Shown: positions 4,758 to 57,700 of the stretch, one piece after another
How the letters are laid out: each line of letters starts with the position of its first letter
How positions within the stretch are numbered: position 1 is the stretch's first letter
Assembly (NCBI GenBank): GCA_965261335.1
Contig: OZ253450.1
Coordinates: 506,705-570,704, forward strand
Length of the DNA: 64,000 nt
Reading direction: 5' to 3'
Source: Candidatus Spongiihabitans sp.
GTDB lineage: Bacteria; Pseudomonadota; Gammaproteobacteria; Arenicellales; Poriferihabitantaceae
The notes under the pieces: generated by a model
Databases searched by the model: none
Told to the model about the DNA's origin: nothing
Seen by the model: the letters and a program-made list of their open reading frames with translations, nothing else
Program-made: the position numbers and the translations under genes

Positions 4758-6425
4758 TTGAGCGATACCAATTTAAGCACATACAGCCGTGTCAATCCTT
4801 GGCGAATTGGCACGGCTGTCATTGTTGTGCTGGCAATATTGCCGGTGCTTGCCATTGTTTGGCTGGCATTTTTCCCAGCGGAAAACATCTGGCCACATCT
4901 CATTAGCACTGTTTTACCGCGTTATCTTGCCAATACGATTGTTCTCATGCTCGGTGTGGGACTGTTCGTTTTCCTCATCGGCGTATCGACTGCTTATCTG
5001 GTCAATACCTATGCGTTCCCCCTGCGTCAATATTTCGAATGGCTGTTAATACTCCCGCTTGCTGTTCCCGCCTACGTCATCGCCTATCTATACACCGACT
5101 TGCTGGAATTTTCCGGCCCGGTGCAGATGCTAATACGCGAATTCTTTGGCTGGCAGGCTGGCGATTATTGGTTTCCCAAGATACGCAGCATGGGTGGCGC
5201 AATTATGTTGATGGGCTTGGTGCTATATCCCTATGTCTATCTCATGGCGCGTGCCTCATTTCTGGAGCAGTCGCCACATCTGCTTGATGTCAGTCGCCTG
5301 ATGGGGCGGTCGCGATTCAATACCTTTCTGTTCGTTTCATTGCCTATTGCTCGTCCTGGCATTGCCATTGGCATCGCCTTAGCACTGATGGAGACCTTGA
5401 ATGATTTTGGTACGGTGGATTATTTTGCCATACACACTTTAACCGCCGGGGTATTCGATGTCTGGCTGAACATGAATAATCTCGGCGGTGCGGCACAAAT
5501 CGCAATTGTGATGTTAAGTTTTGTGTTGTTGCTCATCGGACTGGAATATATCGGGCGCAAACGCACCGCTTTTTACCAAACTACCGGCAGATTTACGCAC
5601 ACGGACAAAATTCAGTTAAACGGATTAGCAAAATGGGGCGCGTTTAGTCTTTGTTTTGCACCGGTTGTGGCTGGATTTTTCATTCCTGCCGTGATGCTGG
5701 TTAATTACGGAATTATCTATTTTGAACAATCATGGACTATGCAGTTTCGGCAATACGCATTAAACAGCCTGTTCGTGTCGGTCATTGCAGCAGGGTGCTG
5801 TGTCGTCATCGCGGTATTGGTAAGTTATGCAAAACGCATTGAAGGGTCGAAGCTGGCAATTGCATCAAAATTGGCTTCAATGGGATATGCCGTGCCCGGT
5901 GCCGTCCTCGCCGTAGGCGTTATTATTCCGCTCGCCGCCTTTGACAATGCGGTGGATGGATTTTTTCGTGCCCAATTCGATGTCTCCACTGGATTGATTC
6001 TCAGCGGTACCACTTTCGCACTTATATTGACTTATGTGATTCGCTTTCTGGCTATATCCATCGGCAGCATCGAATCCAGTTTTTCTAAAATTTCAATCTC
6101 GGTGGACATGGCAGCACGCACACTCGGACATGCGCCATTGAGAACCCTGCAACGTTACCATTTACCGCTCATCAAAAGCGGTGTTTTCACTGCTGCCCTA
6201 ATCGTGTTTGTCGACTGCATGAAAGAGTTGCCGGCGACACTATTACTGCGCCCGTTCAATTTTGAAACTTTGGCGACCCATGTTTATCTGTTTGCCTCCG
6301 ATGAAATGATTGAGCAAAGCGCACTCGGTGCCTTATTGATTGTCATCTGCGGGTTGATTCCAGTCATTGTGTTAAGCCGAACAATTACGTATTCTCAGAT
6401 TTTAACCAATCAGACCGAACCATGA
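4758..6425 (+). CDS. fbpB: iron(III) ABC transporter permease, duplicated 2 x 6 TM type
   Basis: 555-aa polytopic membrane protein located between the binding protein and the ATPase. TTG start as called by the track. Confidence 0.8.
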   Translation: MSDTNLSTYSRVNPWRIGTAVIVVLAILPVLAIVWLAFFPAENIWPHLISTVLPRYLANTIVLMLGVGLFVFLIGVSTAYLVNTYAFPLRQYFEWLLILPLAVPAYVIAYLYTDLLEFSGPVQMLIREFFGWQAGDYWFPKIRSMGGAIMLMGLVLYPYVYLMARASFLEQSPHLLDVSRLMGRSRFNTFLFVSLPIARPGIAIGIALALMETLNDFGTVDYFAIHTLTAGVFDVWLNMNNLGGAAQIAIVMLSFVLLLIGLEYIGRKRTAFYQTTGRFTHTDKIQLNGLAKWGAFSLCFAPVVAGFFIPAVMLVNYGIIYFEQSWTMQFRQYALNSLFVSVIAAGCCVVIAVLVSYAKRIEGSKLAIASKLASMGYAVPGAVLAVGVIIPLAAFDNAVDGFFRAQFDVSTGLILSGTTFALILTYVIRFLAISIGSIESSFSKISISVDMAARTLGHAPLRTLQRYHLPLIKSGVFTAALIVFVDCMKELPATLLLRPFNFETLATHVYLFASDEMIEQSALGALLIVICGLIPVIVLSRTITYSQILTNQTEP

Positions 6426-7886: not shown

Positions 7887-8729
7887 ATGAGTTATTCATC
7901 TCCCCAGAACAAACCAAAGCCTACAGGCTTCATAAGCAGCACCTTTCGTACATGTCTCTGCTTATTCAGATTGGTAAAAAGGACATTATTAGGATATCGC
8001 TATATTAGATTGAGCCCAAACTTAAAGGGTAGAATTTGTTTCTACGATCGAAAATTTTCTAAATTTTTTACTATACAATCTCGCGGTCATACTGATTCGA
8101 ATACGGCTCGCCAGATATATGATTCCGAAGATTATTCTTTAAATAGATTGGCTCGTGAACAAGATATTATTGAAGAATATGAGAGAATATTAACGACGGG
8201 TAAGATTCCTCTTATTTATGATTGCGGAGGAAATATTGGATTGGCATCAAGATATTTCGCAGAACAGTTTCCTGCTGCCCGAGTTATCTGCATTGAGCCG
8301 GAAAAGGGTAATATGGTTCAGGCAAGAAAGAACTGTAAAAAATTCGACAATGTTATTTTTAGAGAAGCGGCTATTGGAGCAACCGTTGGTTTTGTCACGA
8401 TTATGGATGAAAATGTAGATGCGGATACATTCAGGGTTTTAACGAGCGATAAATCTGATGAGACGGAAATGGTAAATATTGACCAATTATTGAAAGAAAA
8501 CAATGATTGTTCTTTGTTTATCGTTAAAATCGATATCGAAGGCTTTGAAGAAAATCTATTCTCACAAAATACTGAATGGATCGATGATTGCATGTTGCTG
8601 ATCGTTGAATTACATGATTGGATGCTACCAGGGTCTGCTAATAGTTCGAATTTCTTACAAGTAATCTCGCATAAGAACAGAGATTTTGTTCACAGAGGGG
8701 AGAATATTTTCTCCATACGAAATAGTTAA
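7887..8729 (+). CDS. FkbM-family SAM-dependent methyltransferase
   Basis: DCGGNIGLASRYFAEQFPAARVICIEPEKGN...REAAIG and IVKIDIEGFEENLF are FkbM-family hallmarks. The start is uncertain. Confidence 0.65.
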   Translation: MSYSSPQNKPKPTGFISSTFRTCLCLFRLVKRTLLGYRYIRLSPNLKGRICFYDRKFSKFFTIQSRGHTDSNTARQIYDSEDYSLNRLAREQDIIEEYERILTTGKIPLIYDCGGNIGLASRYFAEQFPAARVICIEPEKGNMVQARKNCKKFDNVIFREAAIGATVGFVTIMDENVDADTFRVLTSDKSDETEMVNIDQLLKENNDCSLFIVKIDIEGFEENLFSQNTEWIDDCMLLIVELHDWMLPGSANSSNFLQVISHKNRDFVHRGENIFSIRNS

Positions 8730-11687: not shown

Positions 11688-12944
11688 GAGACCTTTGCAT
11701 AAATCCACCCGGGGCCCCACTTAAAATGGTAAAATAGCGTTCATTCAATAAACCCTTGAGGATACCGTCAAATGTCTTGGAAACAAACCGCCCAATACTC
11801 GTTCGCAGATGCCCTTTTAATTGAGCATAAGTCATTGTCCAAACTAGATGATGTGCATGAAATTATCGATTGGAAACAGATCGAAAAAACGCTCAGCCAT
11901 CTTTATGCCAGCAAGCGCGGTGTGCCAGCATACCCACCTTTGATGATGTTTAAGATACTGATTTTACAGGCGTGGTATAACTTAAGCGATGAAGCCTTAG
12001 AAGAACAGATAGCCCGGGATTTAATGTTCCGCCGGTTTATTGGTTTGAGTCTCAGTGATGCAGTACCCGATCATTCCACTATTTGGCGGTTTAGGAACTT
12101 ATTACACACCGAAAATCTGCTTGATTCTTTATTGGTGCAGATCAATAACCATCTCGCTAAAAACAGTCTTATTGTTGCCACAGGCTCGGTCAATATTATC
12201 GATGCGACTGTGATTGAGGCGAAGCAATGCCGTTCTAAAAAGAACAAACAAGGCGACAATACCCAAGACCCAGAAGCGGCATGGAACGTGAAAACGGCAT
12301 CCGATGGCAGGCGTAAAAGCACCTACGGATTTAAGATGCACGCCAATACCGATGAAGATGGTTTTATCAAGAAAATGACCTATACGCCTGGCAATGTGCA
12401 TGATTCACAGGAGTTTGAACATCTGTTAGGCGATAGGCACGGACAAGTTTACGCAGACAGTGCCTATGCCAACAAAGACAATGACGAGAAACTGGGTAAA
12501 GAAAACAATAGAATCTTGCACCGGGCTTATCGCAACACACCATTAACGGAGCAACAAAAAGCACTGAATAAAATGTATAGCAGTGTCCGCTATGTGGTTG
12601 AACGCACCTTTGGTTTGCTCAAACTGCATCACGGATTAGGCAAGGCAAGATACATGGGGTTAGCCAGAAACAAAACCCGCGCACATCTGATTGCCATGAG
12701 CCATAACCTTAAAACTGGGATGAATATTTTCAAAGAACTGCAACGTTTAAAGGAGAGTTGTGCCTAAATGGGCAATAAAACAGATAAAAACCCACTAAAA
12801 GTGGTTAAAAGTGCCGAAATAGCGGCTTTTTTGGTGTCGTATTGATGATTGAGAGAACATGGGCGAAAAAATGAGGCAAATTTATAAAAAATCACGTTGT
12901 TTGTGAGTTGCGAGGGGGTGTTTTGTGGATTATGCAAAAGTCTC
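11688..12944 (+). mobile_element. IS5-family element, apparently intact
   Basis: Terminal inverted repeats GAGACCTTTGCATAAATCCAC and GTGGATTATGCAAAAGTCTC, with a single 331-aa transposase ORF. It is flanked by a duplicated ATTA/ATTAT of the IS30 terminal repeat. Confidence 0.8.
11772..12767 (+). CDS. IS5-family DDE transposase
   Basis: Uninterrupted 331 aa. The N-terminus has the ...PAYPPLMMFKILILQAWYNLSDEALEEQIARDLMFRRFIGLSL..VPDHSTIWRFRNLL motif, and the DDE region includes YADSAY. Confidence 0.85.
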   Translation: MSWKQTAQYSFADALLIEHKSLSKLDDVHEIIDWKQIEKTLSHLYASKRGVPAYPPLMMFKILILQAWYNLSDEALEEQIARDLMFRRFIGLSLSDAVPDHSTIWRFRNLLHTENLLDSLLVQINNHLAKNSLIVATGSVNIIDATVIEAKQCRSKKNKQGDNTQDPEAAWNVKTASDGRRKSTYGFKMHANTDEDGFIKKMTYTPGNVHDSQEFEHLLGDRHGQVYADSAYANKDNDEKLGKENNRILHRAYRNTPLTEQQKALNKMYSSVRYVVERTFGLLKLHHGLGKARYMGLARNKTRAHLIAMSHNLKTGMNIFKELQRLKESCA

Positions 12945-12962
12945 ATTATGTGAATTCAAGCA

Positions 12963-20566: not shown

Positions 20567-21445
20567 ATGAAAAAATACAAAGAGTCAAACCATACAATTC
20601 ATCATGGGGATGCCTTGGAAGTATTGCGATCTGAAATAGACAGTGATTCTATAGATTTAGTGTTTGTTGATCCGCCGTACAACATTGGGAAAAAATTTTC
20701 TGAATTTAAAGATAGTTGGCCATCTGATACTGAATATGTGGAATGGGCATATCAATGGATTGATGAATGTATAAGGGCACTAAAACCTACAGGAACCTTA
20801 TATCTAATGACAAGCACCCAAGCAATGCCATATTTTGATCTGTATGTAAGAAAAAATCTTGAAATTCTTAGTCGTATTGTCTGGTCTTATGATAGCTCTG
20901 GAGTTCAAGCAAAAAAACATTATGGGTCAAAATATGAACTTATTTTACACTGTGTAAAAAACATCAAGTCCTATTGTTTTAATGCAGATGATATTCTCGT
21001 AGAAGCCAAAACTGGAGCGAAACGAAAACTAATTGACTACAGGGGTGATGTCCCAAAACTGTATAATACAAAAAAAGTGCCTGGTAATGTATGGGAGTTT
21101 CCTAGAGTCAGATACCGTATGCATGAGTATGAAGAGCATCCATCACAAAAGCCAGAAGCACTATCGGAAAGAATAATTCGTGCGAGTAGTAATAAAGGAG
21201 ACACAGTGCTTGATCCATTTTCAGGCACGTTTTCTACGGCTGCCGTTGCTAAAAAATTGGGACGCAAAAGCATTAGTATCGAATTACAAGATGAGTATCT
21301 AAAAATTGGTTTGCGTAGAGTATTAGGTAGGGGCGATCATTTAGGCGAAAAGCTAGAAGCCGTTAAGAAAAACACAAAAATAAGAAATGGTCGCGGGATA
21401 AAATACGACGACAAAACAGAGGATATTTTTAGTGTCAATCATTAA
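20567..21445 (+). CDS. beta-class N6-adenine/N4-cytosine DNA methyltransferase
   Basis: Motif IV FVDPPYNIG is N-terminal, HPSQKPEAL follows, and motif I VLDPFSGTFSTA is C-terminal. One 60-nt line counted about 35% GC. Overlaps the next ORF by 14 nt. Confidence 0.85.
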   Translation: MKKYKESNHTIHHGDALEVLRSEIDSDSIDLVFVDPPYNIGKKFSEFKDSWPSDTEYVEWAYQWIDECIRALKPTGTLYLMTSTQAMPYFDLYVRKNLEILSRIVWSYDSSGVQAKKHYGSKYELILHCVKNIKSYCFNADDILVEAKTGAKRKLIDYRGDVPKLYNTKKVPGNVWEFPRVRYRMHEYEEHPSQKPEALSERIIRASSNKGDTVLDPFSGTFSTAAVAKKLGRKSISIELQDEYLKIGLRRVLGRGDHLGEKLEAVKKNTKIRNGRGIKYDDKTEDIFSVNH

Positions 21446-50006: not shown

Positions 50007-50640
50007 ATGCTGACTCCATCTACCCCAAACACAGGGCAACAAAATCTGTTTCACACCGAATTGTTCTCTCAATTAGACCCACGAGACCCTTTAATCCAAT
50101 TAGCCAACGTCATCGACTGGAAGGTCTTCGAGGATGCATTTAGCAAACACTATTGCCACGATAACGGCAGACCCTCAAAACCAATACGCTTAATGGTCGG
50201 GTTGCTGATGCTCAAACAACTGGAAAACCTGTCCGATGAGAATGTGGTCTTACAGTTCAAGCGTAATCCGTATTATCAATACTTCTGCGGTTATCCAACC
50301 TACACCCCTGCCATGCCTTGCAATGCAACCGAACTGGTGCATTTTAGAAACAGAATCGGTGTCGCAGGTTTTGAACTCATTTTTAAGATGAGTGTGATGT
50401 TGCACGGCAAAAAAGCCAATGAAAACACTGTTTTGATTGACACCCCTGTACAGAAGGGAAAAACAGGAAAAAAACATCACCTATCCGACTGATTCTAAAC
50501 TAGCCATCAAAATTATCAACCGTCTCAACAAATTGGCGAAAAAACATGGCATCAAACAACGCAGAACCTTTGTAAAAGAAGTTAAAAACTGTCGCTTACG
50601 CATTCGCCACTTCCGCCATGTTAAAAAGCCCTTGATCCAT
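50007..50640 (+). pseudogene. IS5-family transposase (a different lineage from 11772..12767), frameshifted and 3'-truncated
   Basis: ORF 50007..50492 reads ...QQNLFHTELFSQLDPRDPLIQLANVIDWKVFEDAFSKHY...GRPSKPIRLMVGLLMLKQLENLSDE. It continues in another frame (EKNITYPTDSKLAIKIINRL...). It is cut at 50641 by a MITE end (cctagcgcgggtttcttgcactgtctc). Confidence 0.65.
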
Positions 50641-50796: not shown

Positions 50797-50988
50797 AGTG
50801 GAAGTCTCCGAAGTGTGGGTTGGTATCGCCCGTGGACACGATAACCACAGCGTTGACCGAATTTGCAACCGTGCCAATAAGCATGCTAAATAGCATCCTA
50901 ATTAAGCAACACCCACCGAGTCAGAATCACTTCGTATCTATGGACGAAAAATGATTGTGGGTGTCCATGATCATTTGATGATTATTTG

Positions 50989-51435
50989 TTAGCGGAGGAA
51001 AAAGCTGAACAGTGCAACCATCACCCCTACGCTACCCATTGTTAAGCCAACCATCCACTTGATTAGGTGTGCTTCGGTGTTGGCAATTTCTACTTTGGTG
51101 TTGGCAATTTCTACTTTAAGCGCGGACTCGGTTTTGGCAATTTCTGCTCTAAGTACGGACTCGGTGTTGGCAATGTCCACTTTAAGTGCGGACTCGATTT
51201 TAGCAATTTCTACGTTAGTTTTGGCAATGTCTGCTTTAAGTGCGGCCTCGGTGTTGGCAATGTCTGCTTTAAGTGCTGCCTCGGTGTTGGCTAATTCGTT
51301 TTTGGTGGCGAGGTTGGCGTTGAGCAGATCAGCTTGAGATTCGGCAAGTGCTTCGGCTTGTTGTACAGGCATACCGACCGCCGTCATACGTTTGACGAAA
51401 TGGTGTGTATCAAAGGCGAGAGCATTAGAAGCCAT
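50989..51435 (-). CDS. membrane-anchored coiled-coil protein with 11-residue repeats (DUF1640/CCDC90-like)
   Basis: N-terminus ...FDTHHFVKRMTAVGMPVQQAEALAE, then repeated ...NTEAALKADIA.../...KTESALKVEIA... units and a C-terminal TM helix WMVGLTMGSVGVMVALFSFFL. Confidence 0.5.
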   Translation of the reverse strand: MASNALAFDTHHFVKRMTAVGMPVQQAEALAESQADLLNANLATKNELANTEAALKADIANTEAALKADIAKTNVEIAKIESALKVDIANTESVLRAEIAKTESALKVEIANTKVEIANTEAHLIKWMVGLTMGSVGVMVALFSFFLR

Positions 51436-51574
51436 GCTTTGACTTTAATACAGACGCTGTTGTTTGTCCACTCTCTGGCAATTGAAAATTGAAAATTGAG
51501 AAGCAACCTAGTCCGTCATTCCTGCGGAAGCAGGAATCCAGTAAAATAAATATTCTTATCAAAACCTAGCCGTC

Positions 51575-51640
51575 ATTCTCAATTATCAATTTTCAATTTT
51601 CAATTCTCAATTCTCAATTCTCAATTTTCAATTTTCAATT
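51575..51640 (+). repeat. nine heptamer units (ATTCTCA/ATTTTCA/ATTATCA) about 95 nt upstream of the adhesin ATG
   Basis: attctca attatca attttca attttca attctca attctca attctca attttca attttca. This is the reverse complement of the TGAGAAT family downstream. Three opposite-orientation units (aattgaa aattgaa aattgag) lie at 51480-51502, across a GGAA-loop hairpin (51527-51546). Confidence 0.85.
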
Positions 51641-51731
51641 AGTTGTGCTACAGTAACGCTATCGAGAGGGATGTTTACACACTCCGAAAATAAGTCGCAC
51701 AAATAACCCATCAAACTGAAGGAGATTCCAA

Positions 51732-54700
51732 ATGAAATCATCGTTTACCATAAAAACACTTAATAATCATATAGTTACCACCCCACAATCCGCGTTCGGC
51801 TTATGGGGCAGAGCAATGATGGTGGCTATAACGCCCCTCAAAACGGTGGCACGAGTGGCATTGAACGAAACAGCACCTCTGAAGCACTTCCTCGCCGCTA
51901 CTTTCTTTGCACTATTGTTTGTCGCACAGCTGGCTAATGCACAAGGCATAGATGACTTCGTGACCACTTGGAGCGTACAAGGAAGTTCAGGAAGTCCGAC
52001 GGTTATTCCAACAACAGGCAGTGGCTATAATTACAACGTAAATTGGGGTGATGGTGGCATAGATACAACGACCTATACCGGCAATGCCATGCATACTTAC
52101 GCCGATGCAGGGACTTATACCGTCCGTATTAGTGGCGCCTTCCCGCGTATTTATTTTAATGCGGAGGAAGGCAATGCTAATTCCAACAGTATCATCGCCA
52201 TTAACCAATGGGGAACAGGGCAATGGACTTCAATGGAACATGCTTTTAGTGGAGCAACCAACCTTATAGGAGACGCAACCGACCGACCTGATTTGTCTCG
52301 GGTAACAGATATGTGGGGTATGTTTAGATATGCTAGCAAATTTAACCAAGACATCGGCGATTGGGATGTCAGCAATGTTGAGCGTATGGGCACGCTGTTT
52401 GAATATACTGACGAATTTAACCAAGATATTGGTGATTGGGATGTCAGCAATGTGACCAATATGACGTGGATGTTTGCTAGTGCCACTGCCTTTAACCAAG
52501 ACATTAGCCGTTGGGATGTCCGCGGTGTAACGAATATGAGTAATATGCTTGGTAACAACACACCTGATTTTAGTCAAAACCTAGGTGCTTGGTATATTAC
52601 TGGGGATTTATCCGTGTCCCCGGCACTTGAAGCAGGAGCCGAAGTAACCCGGTTTACGACTCAGAATAGTGAATTAGACGGTCACAACCCGAGCTATACG
52701 CTTGTCGTCGGAGGTGATGCCAATTTGTTTGCCCTAACGTCAATGGGTGTCCTGAGCATAAACGATGCACCGCCCGCTGGAAAAACTTCATATCACATTA
52801 CCATAGCGGCTACTGGCTTATTTGGAACAAACAATCAGCAAGAGTTGACCCTTGTCGCCAATCATAAACCCGAGATTACCTCTAACAATGGTGATTCCCC
52901 ATATACAATAACACTCCCCGAGAACACCAAGGCAGTCACCACCATCACCGCGACAGATATGGACGCGAATACTTTGACCTATACGCTTTCAAATAACGAT
53001 GCCGCGTTGTTTGAGATAAATAACGCAGGAGAATTAAGTTTCAAAGACGAGTATATTCCAGATTATGAAAAACCAAGAAACACTATGGGAGAGTTTGACC
53101 AGAATGCAGACCAAGAATATAGCGTTCTGGTAACCGTATCGGACGGCGTATCGACCGACACACAGGAAATTATCGTAACCATTGAAAATGTTACAGTGGC
53201 GGTTCCCAACATTCCCGCGTTCCTCGATCCCATCTCACTGGGTGCCACCGTGGGCACTGCCATTAGCCCCGTCACCATTACCAATAGCGGTGGTACAGCC
53301 ACCTACAGCATCAGTCCAGACCTGCCTGCGGGACTGTCCATTGACACCGCCACGGGCACCATCTCGGGCACGCCAACTGCAACCAAAGGGAATTTGTTGT
53401 ACACCATCACGGCTACCAATGACGCTGGCAGCGATAACGCCCAAATCAACCTATCCGTTCAGATAGGAGCGTCTGCTCCCGACATCAGCGTCAGCCCCAG
53501 TATGCTGACCTTCACCGTAGGCATCCCCGTTACAACTAACCCCATCACCAATAGCGGTGGTAGATTCGATACCGGAATCAGTATCACGGACGCGAATGGT
53601 CAAACTTTGACTGAGAACACCGGTCTTAACACTAATGCACATGGTGACATCTATGGCACACCAACGATGTCCGCTAGCGCGGAGATTTACACCATCAGAG
53701 TTAGCAATATCCAAGGCAGCTCCGAGGTCACCATCACCATCACTGTTAATGCGGCAGTGGTTGCTCCTGACATTCCCGACATCAGCGTCAGCCCGGGATT
53801 CCAGAACGCCACCGTAGGTGTTGCCATTACCCCATTCGTCATTACCAATAACGGTGGTACAGCTACATATAGTATCGCTCCAAATCTGCCAGCTGGACTG
53901 GTGATTGACCTAAACACTGGCACCGTATCAGGCACCCTAACGGAGCTGTCTAGTGCCATCATAGTTTACTCCATCACGGCTACCAATATCACCGGTAGCG
54001 ATGTCGTTACTTTCACCCTATCCGTTCAGCCATCAGGAATAATTGCTCCAAACATCAGCGTCAGCCCCAGTAGCCTGACCTTCACCGTAGGCATTCCTGT
54101 TACCACTAACCCCATCACCATTACGAATAGCGGTGGTCCAGCAGATGCAGGGTTCGTCATCTCAAATACAAGTAATAGTCAAAGTTTGGAAGATGACACA
54201 GGTCTGTCCTATAATTATCTTACCGGTGTCATCTCTGGTACACCAACGAGAGCCGTTAATGCGAGGATTTACAGAATTCAAGCTGATAATGCCGGAGGCA
54301 CATCGCGGACTACCATCACCGTTACTGTTAATGCGGCAGTGGTTGCTCCCGACCTTCCCGACATTAGCGTCAGCCCGGGATTCCAGAACGCCACCGTAGG
54401 TGTTGCCATTACCCCATTCGTCATTACCAATAACGGTGGTACAGCCACCTATAGCATCAGTCCAGCCCTGCCAGTGGGACTGTCTATTGACACCGCCACT
54501 GGCACCGTATCAGGCACCCTAACGGAGCTGTCTAGTGCCATAGTTTACTCCATCACGGCTACCAATATCACCGGTAGCGATGTCGTTACTTTCAGCCTAT
54601 CCGTTCAGCCAGGATCGATTGCTCCAAACATTAGCGTCAGCCCCAGTATCCTGACCTTCACCGTAGGCATTCCTGTTACCACTAATCCCATCACCATTAC

Positions 54701-57700
54701 GAATAGCGGTGGTACACCAGATGCAGGATTCGTCATCGTACTTAATAATGGTCAAAGTTTGAACACTGACACAGGTCTGAACTTTAATCGTACCGGTGTC
54801 ATCTCTGGTACACCAACGAGAGCCGTTAGTGCGGAGATTTACACAATTAGAGCTGAAAATGCCGCAGGCAGATCGGAGGCTACCATCACCGTTACTGTTA
54901 ATGCGGCAGTGGTTGCTCCAAGTATCAGTATCAACCCCGCCACCGTAACGGTAACAGCGGGTACGGCTATTGCGGATATAATTATCACTTCAAGTGGTGG
55001 TGATGCTGTCAGCTACAGCATCGATCCAGACATTGCTAATGGATTATCGTTTGACGAAACCAGCGGAACCATATCAGGTACGCCATCGGAGGAGGCAAGT
55101 TTAATTACCTACACCATTACTGCCGAAAATAGTGTTGGTTCGAATAGTGCGACAATAGCCATTATCGTTAATGAGGCACCAACAACATCCGTAGCTGTCC
55201 CGATTATCAGTATCAGCCGTGCTACGCTGGTTGCCACCGTGGGTACTGCTATCCAGCAGATAACCATCGTTTCAAGTGGCGGTATGGTTTCCAACTACAG
55301 CATCAATCCAGCCATTGCTAATGGACTGTCATTTAACGCAGCCAACGGCACCATCTCGGGCATACCAACGGCGGTTGCAGGTCCAACCAGCTACACCATT
55401 ACTGCTACTAATAGCGGTGGTACGGCTATGGCTACGGTAGCCATCACCGTTAATGATGTTGCCCCAAGTATCAGCATTAACCCCGCCGCCGTAACGGTAA
55501 CAGTGGGCAGTGCTATCACGCCGATAACCATCAGTTCAAGTGGCGGTGATGTTGTCAGCTACAGCATCGATCCAGCCATTGCTAATGGACTGTCATTTGA
55601 CGCAACCAACGGCATCATATCAGGCACACCAACGGCGGTTGCACCTTCACGCACCTACATCATCACCGCGACCAATAGCGGTGGTATGGCTATGGCTACG
55701 ATAGCCATCACCGTTAATGATGTTGCTCCGAGTATCAGTATCAGCCGCGATACGCTGGTTGCCACAGCGGGTACGGCTATCCAGCAGATAACCATCGTTT
55801 CAAGTGGCGGTGGTAATGTTGTCAGCTACACCATCGCCCCAGCCATTGCTAATGGACTGTCATTTGACGCAACCAGCGGCATCATCTCGGGCATACCAAC
55901 GGCGGTTGCACCTTCACGCACCTACATCATCACCGCGACCAATAGCGGTGGTATGGCTATGGCTACGATAGCCATCACCGTTAATGATGTTGCTCCGAGT
56001 ATCAGTATCAGCCGCGATACGCTGGTTGCCACAGCGGGTACGGCTATCCAGCAGATAACCATCGTTTCAAGTGGCGGTGGTAATGTTGTCAGCTACACCA
56101 TCGCCCCAGCCATTGCTAATGGACTGTCATTTGACGCAACCAGCGGCATCATATCAGGCATACCAACGGCGGTTGCAGGTCCAACCAGCTACACCATTAC
56201 TGCTATTAATAGCGGTGGTACGGCTATGGCTACGGTAGCCATCACCGTTAATGATGTTGCCCCGAGTATTGTTGCCACCCCGACCACACAAAATGTCACC
56301 GTAGGCAGTCCCATTGAGACGATAACCATCACCTCAAATGGCGGAGCGGTTATCAGCTACAGCATTAGTTCAACATTGACAACTGGATTGTCATTTGACA
56401 CCACCACCGGCACCATCTCGGGTACGCCATTGGTGGTTACGGGTTCAACCAGCTACACCATTACTGCGACCAATAGCGGTGGTATGGCTATGGCTACGGT
56501 AGCCATTACCGTCAATGAAGCCGTCCCGATTATCAGTATCAGTACCGATACGCTGGTTGCCACCGTGGACACTGCTATCCAGCAGATAACCATCGTTTCA
56601 AGTGGCGGAGCGGTTGTCAGCTACAGTATTAGTCCAACACTGACATCTGGATTGTCATTTGACACCGCCACTGGCACTATTTCGGGTACACCAACGGTGG
56701 TTGCGAGTTTAGCCACCTACTACACCATCACGGCGACTAATACCAGAGGTTCAGATAGCACGACAATAGCCATTACCGTTAATGCACCAAAATTAGACAC
56801 CCCGACTGCAACAGTGAGAGGAACGGTGACTACTAGCGGCAAAAGTATTACGGTTGAAGTGACGAGCAAAGGAACTGAAACAATCACTCAGTTTTATGCC
56901 GGCGAAGTATCCGAGTCAAAGTTGCAAACGATAGTGAAAAAGGCGGTTGCTACGGATGGCATTGATTTCGCCAAAGCACCAGCAAGTATTGACCGCACAA
57001 TAACCCCAACTTTGGTGCTGAATACGGCGGTTGATATTACGGTGAATGAGGACGCATGTTCTGGCAAAGGATGTGAAGTTACCTTGTCTTATGAAGCAAG
57101 CGATGAACAAGTAGGCAAAGATTTGTATGTCTTTCACTATGATGAGATGGCAGACACGTGGGAAGCCTTGCCACATGTTCGCCGTGATAGAACAGAGTTA
57201 ACGGTGACAGCCCTTGCCGATAGTTTTTCGCCATTCGCATTGTTTAATGCAAGCAGAGCGGACAAATTGGCGAAGCAACTGAACAAGGATATTTTGCCAA
57301 TTCTTGTCCAAACTATGCTTGCCAGCACCATGTCAGCGGTGAGTACCCGCATTGATGCTACTTTCTCGGGCACACCTCAAGGCAGTTATCAATTAGATGG
57401 TCAAACGGTGAAACTGAATGGTAGCGGTAACCTGCAAGATGCGATGGCGAGCAAACTGCCGCATTATGCGACATCACTGAAAGACGGCACAATGGACTGG
57501 AAAGCAATGTTGTCTCGTTCATCCTTTGTATTGCCGCTGAATGCGGTGGGCGAAGAGGGTGCTGGTGGTGCGACCATATGGGGCAGTGGCGATTACAATA
57601 AAATGAGTGGCAAGCTCAGTGATGGCGACTGGAAAGGCGATGTATTTAGCCTTCAACTTGGTGTCGACCAGCGTATGAAAGATGATTTACTGGCAGGTGG

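Follow-up and report, generated by a model that had tools for sequence, protein, structure and literature searches.

Do the heptamer repeats that lie ahead of a giant adhesin gene in a sponge symbiont work as a switch on this gene, or are they unstable DNA beside it? The question is raised by a 64,000-nt stretch of Candidatus Spongiihabitans sp. (contig OZ253450.1; hereafter the window, whose numbering is used throughout), in which 296 bp separate a divergent gene for a coiled-coil protein of the DUF1640 family from the ATG (51732) of an autotransporter adhesin gene. A sequence-only reading of this interval had described inverted heptamer arrays around a GGAA-loop hairpin and proposed that changes in unit number alter the spacing and phasing between an upstream element and the adhesin promoter. 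We compared the interval with its counterpart in a second strain and with related loci. As judged by these comparisons, the region is a case of repeat-mediated hypervariability beside a surface-protein gene, in which a heptamer microsatellite is embedded in a sponge-symbiont mosaic resembling the Neisseria intergenic mosaic elements (NIMEs).

Tandem repeats were located with Tandem Repeats Finder (TRF) and by direct reading of the sequence. Most of the described layout was recovered (Table 1). The divergent coiled-coil and adhesin genes were confirmed by Pfam and the three AATTGA(A/G) units were found in place. The hairpin is real, with a perfect stem, but lies 9 nt to the left of 51527-51546, where it had been put; the nine complementary units are likewise present, but as NTCAATT units shifted with respect to 51575-51637, and they end 91 nt instead of about 95 nt before the adhesin ATG. 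Their order is CTCAATT ATCAATT TTCAATT x2 CTCAATT x3 TTCAATT x2, and TRF calls this array at 51575-51640 with 9.4 copies and 93% matches. Read toward the coiled-coil gene, the left array is also NTCAATT, 44 nt from the DUF1640 ATG. Both modules of the core between the arrays terminate in CAA(A/C)CCTAG(T)CCGTCATT, and the palindrome loop is of GNRA type in one strand orientation only, which makes the core directional. Folding of the region as single-stranded DNA gives a long stem between the two arrays, whose loop contains the small hairpin (dG -23.1 kcal/mol, z = -4.1). No intrinsic terminator associated with the hairpin was found by scanning, and an Rfam search of 50800-52000 returned no known RNA family, its sole match being a sub-threshold small nucleolar RNA (snoRNA). 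For the pattern of two consecutive units, the window gives 105 matches and shuffled sequence 4.96 +/- 2.2, nearly all of the excess coming from the arrays of this locus and from the 88-unit array downstream of the adhesin gene.

An exact-protein look-up of TrpD and Smr led to the second strain (loci L001 and L005, on a 1.1-Mb contig of ENA assembly ERZ26693861). Its flanks are nearly identical to those of the window (98.5% over 59125-64000 and 99.3% over 51074-51499), as are the first ~800 nt of the adhesin gene (93-100% per 100-nt window, mostly 97-100%); identity between the two adhesin genes drops to 50-90% from ~52540 onward. All three arrays differ in unit number and in unit type between the strains (Table 1), and the right array has 5-6 units in two related genomes. 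The core differs in orientation: reverse-complementing the core of the window yields that of L005 exactly, except that L005 alone carries a 40-bp unit, located between duplicated CTTCCGCAGGAATGACGG half-sites. Because neither core end has lost a base, the breakpoints of this inversion lie inside the arrays.

The flanks and unit types of the arrays are informative about how the inversion arose. Arrays were classified in the window and 25 fetched loci, which gave 67 non-identical arrays (the script counted 70, from which we dropped 3 duplicate rows coming from the file of alignment A1, an alignment of the four adhesin upstream regions of the window, L005, L012 and L023). In the commonest arrangement, an A-type flank (...AATATTCTTATCAAAACCTAGCCGTCATT) is followed by (NTCAATT)n and then by GCCAGAGAGTGGACAAACAACAGCGTCTGTATTAAAGTC..ATG of a DUF1640 paralogue (15 cases, 2-6 units, one with 21). 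At the adhesin promoter of the three other genomes, L005, L012 and L023, it is a D-type flank (...GGAATGACGGACTAGGTTGCTT) that stands ahead of the array. Only the window combines an A-type flank at the adhesin promoter with a D-type flank at the DUF1640 promoter, and it alone is flipped with respect to the core orientation, relative to the adhesin gene, that L005, L012 and L023 share. Since this reciprocal swap is confined to the window, its flipped state is the derived one. The units agree with the flanks: the final AATTGAG of the left array is of the type found beside D-type flanks, the start of the right array (CTCAATT ATCAATT TTCAATT TTCAATT) is made of types typical beside A-type flanks, and its remainder (CTCAATT x3 TTCAATT x2) resembles the outer part of the L005 array. 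Such a chimeric order fits the product expected of a single crossover or template switch between inverted arrays.

Taken together, these alignments show hypervariability between strains by both slippage and inversion. The proposal of variable repeats at the adhesin promoter holds in so far as unit number differs between strains at three arrays; the polymorphism extends beyond what was proposed, to the inversion of the 77-bp core and to the 88-unit downstream array. An expression switch at the adhesin gene was not demonstrated. The two orientations are seen between strains only.

We then considered whether this layout is particular to the adhesin gene. In a scan of one genome per species, an array together with a conserved 18-nt leader CAAAACCTANCCNNCATT occurred 17 times and in four species of metagenome-assembled genomes (MAGs) only, titled Candidatus Spongiihabitans sp., Candidatus Poriferihabitaceae bacterium, Gammaproteobacteria bacterium and 'uncultured Pseudohongiella sp.'; Spongiihabitans is placed in Arenicellales, Gammaproteobacteria. 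Besides the DUF1640 and adhesin promoters, arrays are found past the stop codons of other autotransporter genes and before the promoter-like TTGACT of a hicB-like gene. The palindrome also recurs. In 313 kb comprising the window and related loci, CGTC-ATTCCTGC-(GGAA/GCAA/GAAA/GAAG)-GCAGGAAT-CCAGT was found 12 times, against 0.06 expected from shuffles for the class ATTCCY-N8-RGGAAT, and in relatives it is the point of insertion or duplication of units of 40 bp to ~176 bp: three ~176-bp units are inserted in its loop in L023 and one 40-bp unit in L005, and none in the window. By its sequence, the palindrome is a dispersed element similar to repetitive extragenic palindromes (REPs) or to the dRS3 repeats of Neisseria, with a GNRA-type loop. 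The parts of the interval are thus, by their distribution, not unique to the locus but modules of a dispersed intergenic mosaic limited to sponge-symbiont Gammaproteobacteria. The layout of inverted arrays and hairpin was not built for the adhesin gene; it is a recurrence of this mosaic. The arrays are inverted because the two divergent genes each carry a copy of the NTCAATT array directly against a promoter-like region. What had been described is therefore one microsatellite module present twice, beside the promoter-like regions of two divergent genes, and the mosaic sequence between the copies is filler.

Promoters were scored by an approximate position weight matrix (PWM) scan and by a separate consensus scan counted as matches of 12. 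The adhesin candidate, whose -35 lies in the last array units and whose extended -10 lies past them, has the top plus-strand score in both alleles (PWM 7.7); an alternative -35, TTCAAT with a 16-nt spacer, is also located in the terminal units. In the four genomes of alignment A1 (4/4), TGCTACAGTAACGC is invariant directly past the last heptamer, and the sequence downstream of it varies, including a 17-nt insertion in L023. From consensus and alignment, we infer that TGcTACAGT is the sole conserved adhesin promoter candidate. Because its extended -10 sits past the array and its -35 in the terminal unit, the geometry of the core promoter would be independent of unit number. An effect on spacing or phasing to an upstream element is not borne out by this arrangement, nor by the upstream flank, which is swapped between strains (A-type vs D-type). 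On the plus strand of the window allele, no promoter upstream of the right array scored above 5.6; this is the score of the best site in the core, TTCCTG-17-TAAAAT, and a stricter scan found none in the core, which lies ~100 nt or more from the adhesin -10 with the array between them.

On the other side of the interval, the left array ends 9 nt before the promoter-like TGGACA-17-TAAAGT, which itself ends 6 nt before the coiled-coil ATG and which follows arrays upstream of more than 20 DUF1640 paralogues. No Shine-Dalgarno sequence was found ahead of this ATG (51436-51470), and the short distance from promoter-like site to ATG suggests that coiled-coil mRNAs may be leaderless.

How are these observations best explained? 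We give a little better than an even chance to the reading that the 296-bp region is hypermutable, lineage-specific mosaic DNA, whose changes in length and orientation are mostly by-products of repeat instability and include no ON/OFF switch. Slipped-strand mispairing would change unit numbers. The core of the window strain would have been flipped by a template switch from one inverted array to the other or by homologous recombination between them, a process that would require no dedicated recombinase. The last array units would supply the -35 and an AT-rich upstream region to the extended -10 adhesin promoter; the core promoter would be insensitive to unit number and any effect on adhesin transcription graded at most.

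Several observations weigh against this explanation. Every promoter assignment on which it leans is a consensus match. In the AATTGAN direction, the arrays themselves form phased, sigma-70-like TTGAnA-17-GAnAAT sites with 9-10 of 12 matches (7 sites vs 1.3 expected), a complete site requiring just over four units; these are probably incidental, because the usual arrangement of the family would aim them away from the gene they precede. Adhesin-side arrays are longer (5-10 units upstream; 20 and 88 downstream) than most DUF1640 arrays (2-6), which could reflect selection for mutability. Poly-C tracts in orthologous adhesin genes, as assembled, show a gene family under pressure for variable expression. 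A C16 tract in L012 (~4804-4819) and a C18 tract in L023 (~8134-8151), both on the minus strand, lie ~46-50 nt past the ATG, and the annotated ATG is, as assembled, out of frame with the gene body; the window (~51780) and L005 have only C4 at this position. Each tract is either a classic signature of slipped-strand phase variation or a homopolymer sequencing error. Finally, two alleles of the exact locus were recovered in all, which do not give the rate of change and leave room for a fast programmed switch.

The original proposal was that gain and loss of heptamers tune adhesin expression in a graded or phase-variable manner, as at hmw1A/hmw2A; a further parallel would be nadA of N. meningitidis, where a TAAA repeat tract lies upstream of the promoter. 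The proposal would account for a 7-bp array 91 nt upstream of a giant adhesin gene, for a unit number that differs at one promoter (9 vs 10 between strains, 5-6 in other species) and for the greater length of adhesin-linked arrays compared with those upstream of DUF1640 genes; moreover, the adhesin family is plausibly phase variable, because the C16 and C18 tracts lie near the 5' end of the coding sequence of orthologues in two related genomes. Depending on whether the left array has 3 or 4 units and on core orientation, a complete adhesin-directed, promoter-like TTGAAA-17-GAAAAT is also made or lost; it scores 8.8 in L005, where four units meet an A-type flank, and is absent in the window with its three units and flipped core. 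Nevertheless, the proposal is faced with a conserved extended -10 past the array, and with the lack of any conserved element upstream whose spacing could matter. A transcribed tract like that of hmw is not indicated either, the best plus-strand site upstream of the array reaching 5.6 only in the window, and the same arrays stand upstream of unrelated genes (DUF1640, hicB-like) and downstream of genes. We therefore regard such tuning as unlikely. A true inverton, in which a flip of the 77-bp core, taking the chimeric inner units along, turns a promoter or other directional signal from one of the two genes, adhesin or coiled-coil, to the other, would fit the occurrence of both orientations in nature, the clean breakpoints inside inverted repeats and the directional core, and a flip does change which flank completes the array-borne promoter-like sites. 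It appears very unlikely to us, given the low score and remote position of the best core promoter, with the array intervening, and the lack of a tyrosine or serine recombinase among the window open reading frames (ORFs) scanned; the single orientation of L005, L012 and L023, with the window alone flipped, fits a rare event.

An equally slender chance is left to the arrays being multimeric sites for a lineage-specific DNA- or RNA-binding regulator, a role proposed for the TAACTGA heptamers of Beggiatoaceae, or promoters firing in the AATTGAN direction, with unit number setting occupancy or promoter multiplicity. The phased TTGAnA-17-GAnAAT sites speak for it, with AATTGAT units yielding TTGATA-17-GATAAT, as do the fixed distances of arrays from promoter-like elements of several gene families and a rotation of the unit, TAATTGA, that is one substitution away from the TAACTGA heptamer (PMC4679880). 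Against it, such promoters would, in the usual layout, be directed away from the gene that follows them and, in tandem DUF1640 clusters, would run antisense into the gene before. The fixed spacing can be accounted for if array, promoter and gene were duplicated together. TAACTGA repeats lie within a few nt of start codons (PMC4679880), unlike the arrays here, which are 44 and 91 nt away from theirs and in some cases are located past genes. No candidate binding protein was identified. Two kinds of binding site were considered as ideas and set aside: Fur-box-like sites made of GATAATT repeats (AATTGAT is not the type of most units ahead of the adhesin gene) and IHF consensus sites (their register does not fit on inspection). 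Assembly artefact as the source of the inversion or of the unit counts is extremely improbable. Both sequences are metagenome assemblies, and repeats are a classic source of misassembly, but the arrays and core span only 161-215 bp, well within single reads, the window resolves a near-perfect tandem array of 616 bp, which implies long reads, the L005 contig has a coverage of 507x as given in its name, and the chimeric unit order is exactly the one that a real crossover predicts. One broader scheme, which we consider quite improbable, would see here a Neisseria-like contingency system made of a dRS3-like palindrome, short mosaic units and a heptamer microsatellite, in which inverted arrays, as substrates of inversion and slippage that are recombinase-independent or assisted by an IS110-type recombinase, reversibly rewire array-borne promoters around giant autotransporter adhesin genes. 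If true, this would be a new phase-variation module made wholly of simple-sequence repeats, in an uncultured animal symbiont encoding an injectisome. Hypermutable mosaic DNA without a switch is the explanation that we retain.

Table 1. Positions of the arrays, promoter candidates, genes and associated elements in the window, with the corresponding state of the second strain
Feature	Position	Strand	Description in the window	Second strain (L005)
Coiled-coil gene	50989-51435	-	148 aa, DUF1640/CCDC90-like, C-terminal membrane segment; Pfam PF07798, E = 2.6e-13	177 aa (L005 18756-19289)
Coiled-coil promoter-like site	51442-51470	-	TGGACA-17-TAAAGT; 9/12 matches; PWM 9.5	
Left (coiled-coil side) heptamer array	51480-51500	+	3 units: AATTGAA x2, AATTGAG x1; partial 'AA' to 51502	4 units
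Core between arrays	51501-51577	.	77 bp, two dispersed modules	
20-bp palindrome ATTCCTGC-GGAA-GCAGGAAT	51518-51537	+	Perfect 8-bp stem, GGAA loop	
Right (adhesin side) heptamer array	51578-51640	+	9 full NTCAATT units; abuts the putative adhesin promoter	10 units
Adhesin promoter candidate	51625-51654	+	-35 TTTTCA in last array units, 18-nt spacer, extended -10 TGcTACAGT (51646-51654)	
Adhesin gene	51732-58643	+	2303 aa; long signal peptide, DUF285, ~10 He_PIG Ig-like repeats, C-terminal autotransporter beta-barrel (Pfam)	2053 aa
Heptamer array past adhesin stop	58655-59270	+	88 units; begins 12 nt past the adhesin stop; inverted vs upstream array	20 units, no AATTGAG unit
MITE-like mosaic unit	59302-59429	.	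Bounded by CGTCATTCCT...AGGAATGACG; G11 tract (59397-59407)	G8

The two genes that flank the interval are themselves repetitive. The coiled-coil gene contains internal 33-nt repeats (11 aa, ANTEAxLKxxI-like) at 51097-51291, as called by TRF, and the number of these repeats varies between the strains along with protein length. Its family is multicopy, with paralogues in related genomes often beside He_PIG autotransporter genes and insertion sequence (IS) elements; a Ca. Spongiihabitans locus (L006 1780-5885) carries three DUF1640 paralogues in tandem, of 220, 180 and 209 aa. The adhesin is a type V autotransporter with a beta-domain of PF03797 (Pfam), and its passenger domain holds a repeat of 264/267 bp (He_PIG modules) in 5.3-5.7 copies at 55199-56720. 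Exchange of the adhesin gene as a cassette bounded by the 5' and 3' arrays was rejected, since its 5' ~800 nt are mostly 97-100% identical between strains and divergence starts inside the passenger domain, not at the arrays.

The array past the adhesin stop reads AATTGAG x72, AATTGAT x5, AATTGAG x1, AATTGAT x9 and AATTGAG x1. It covers 616 bp and is near-perfect (99% matches; 88-89 units over 58649-59273). Because the second strain has 20 units and not one AATTGAG, the 72-unit block looks like a recent expansion. Beyond the array lies a unit resembling a miniature inverted-repeat transposable element (MITE), whose copy in the second strain has an extra C8 run ~20 nt upstream of its G8; units with matching terminal inverted repeats, some shorter and some longer (~176 bp), sit in the palindrome loop of L023. 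Elsewhere in the window, a short degenerate heptamer array (TTCAATT CTCAATT and decayed units) was seen at 40310-40341, downstream of glmS. It adjoins an IS/MITE-like repeat of ~440 bp, which is also present near 12502-12945 and downstream of the adhesin gene in L005.

Pfam scans of the window ORFs, which covered all but a few of them (for instance 28519-31611), found no tyrosine or serine recombinase, and near the locus only fragments of DDE transposases (50007-50492, 59867-60265 and 60292-60708). A complete-looking cluster for non-flagellar type III secretion (an injectisome) occupies ~16665-38660, ~13 kb upstream of the adhesin gene, with YscJ/K/L/N/O/P/Q/R/T/U, YscD, a secretin, CesT-type and tetratricopeptide repeat (TPR) chaperones and an SseC-like translocon protein; a gene for an N6/N4 DNA methylase (20567-21445) lies inside it.

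Further alleles were looked for by several routes. The exact-protein look-up of the 148-aa coiled-coil protein gave no match, and the top matches of the homologue search (L002-L004, L023 and L024) are paralogues elsewhere, with no further alleles of the locus among them. JGI metagenomes matched neither a locus-specific 30-mer nor the family pattern. A third contig, from another sample (L025/L026; 33 kb, 3x coverage, ERZ26051151), yielded no third allele of the region: L026 matches the window through GlmS, RNase E and a DUF772 fragment and departs from it in the coiled-coil gene near 51306. The break (~5303 of L026) falls in the 33-nt repeat region of that gene, with unrelated sequence beyond, and is either a rearrangement breakpoint or a chimera of low-coverage assembly. 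In the literature, a search for dimers of the heptamer met only with primers and with eukaryotic sequences that are unrelated.

Variation of surface adhesins through repeats is characteristic of pathogens adapted to a host. To our knowledge, it is essentially undescribed in uncultured sponge symbionts. The present locus shows features typical of such variation, namely strain-variable microsatellites, an inversion, an insertion point close to dRS3 and poly-C tracts in the adhesin genes of relatives. Were the variation fast and of consequence for expression, it would indicate immune-evasion-like or host-matching dynamics in a sponge symbiosis.

Four known systems can be compared with the interval. 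The fimS element of E. coli is an invertible promoter. As with invertons of this kind, an adhesin gene is preceded by a short segment that is bounded by inverted repeats and occurs in either orientation; here, in contrast, microsatellite arrays that are unequal in length and vary in it serve as the inverted repeats, the scanned ORFs nearby include no recombinase gene, no convincing internal promoter is present and the orientations differ only between strains.

Like hmw1A/hmw2A of H. influenzae, which carry (ATCTTTC)n, the adhesin gene here encodes a very large secreted protein and has upstream of it a 7-bp tandem repeat whose unit number is polymorphic. The hmw tract forms part of the 5'-untranslated region (5'-UTR) of the transcript, where base pairing with a G-rich arm produces a long hairpin that RNase III cleaves; expression falls in inverse proportion to tract length (PMC12721329). 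The sequence-only reading had called this a close precedent; the 5'-UTR tract and G-rich partner are not evident here, where the array is followed by the best conserved promoter candidate. In addition, the present array is one of a dispersed family whose members also follow genes and precede unrelated ones, and its differences in unit number are known between strains only.

The TAACTGA repeats of marine Beggiatoaceae, Cyanobacteria and some Bacteroidetes are similarly lineage-restricted intergenic heptamers in tandem, mostly in 2-6 copies with occasional very long arrays. They sit close to start codons, and a post-transcriptional action has been proposed for them (PMC4679880). The units here are AATTGA(A/G/T), whose closest rotation keeps one mismatch to TAACTGA; the arrays lie 44-91 nt before start codons beside promoter-like sites, or just past stop codons (12 nt), and are always preceded by the conserved 18-nt leader.

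In its architecture, the mosaic resembles NIMEs, in which 20-bp dRS3 palindromes, ATTCCC-N8-GGGAAT, flank RS units near surface-protein genes and vary between strains; they have been reported as unobserved outside Neisseria, where a transposase/recombinase encoded by filamentous prophages integrates into dRS3 (PMC1797815). Exact dRS3, ATTCCCNNNNNNNNGGGAAT by the consensus of the same source (PMC1797815), is absent from the 313 kb, all 12 palindromes (12/12) being ATTCCT-N8-AGGAAT, and it is for this reason that the mosaic is said to resemble NIMEs and not to be a member. The hosts also differ, those here being Arenicellales sponge symbionts, and NIMEs have not been described as containing a heptamer microsatellite. 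In relatives (Ca. Spongiihabitans), IS110-family-like transposase ORFs, recognized by eye from motifs with no domain search, lie beside palindrome/mosaic arrays (L006 56-1050 and 6402-7378; L012 ~5230-5500), which adds to the likeness. The palindrome here is one compensated position per arm away from dRS3. In the few loci compared, it bounds units of 40 to ~176 bp whose number varies between genomes, and the mosaics cluster around surface-protein genes. Should the variation prove fast and affect expression, a NIME-like architecture would extend beyond Neisseria.

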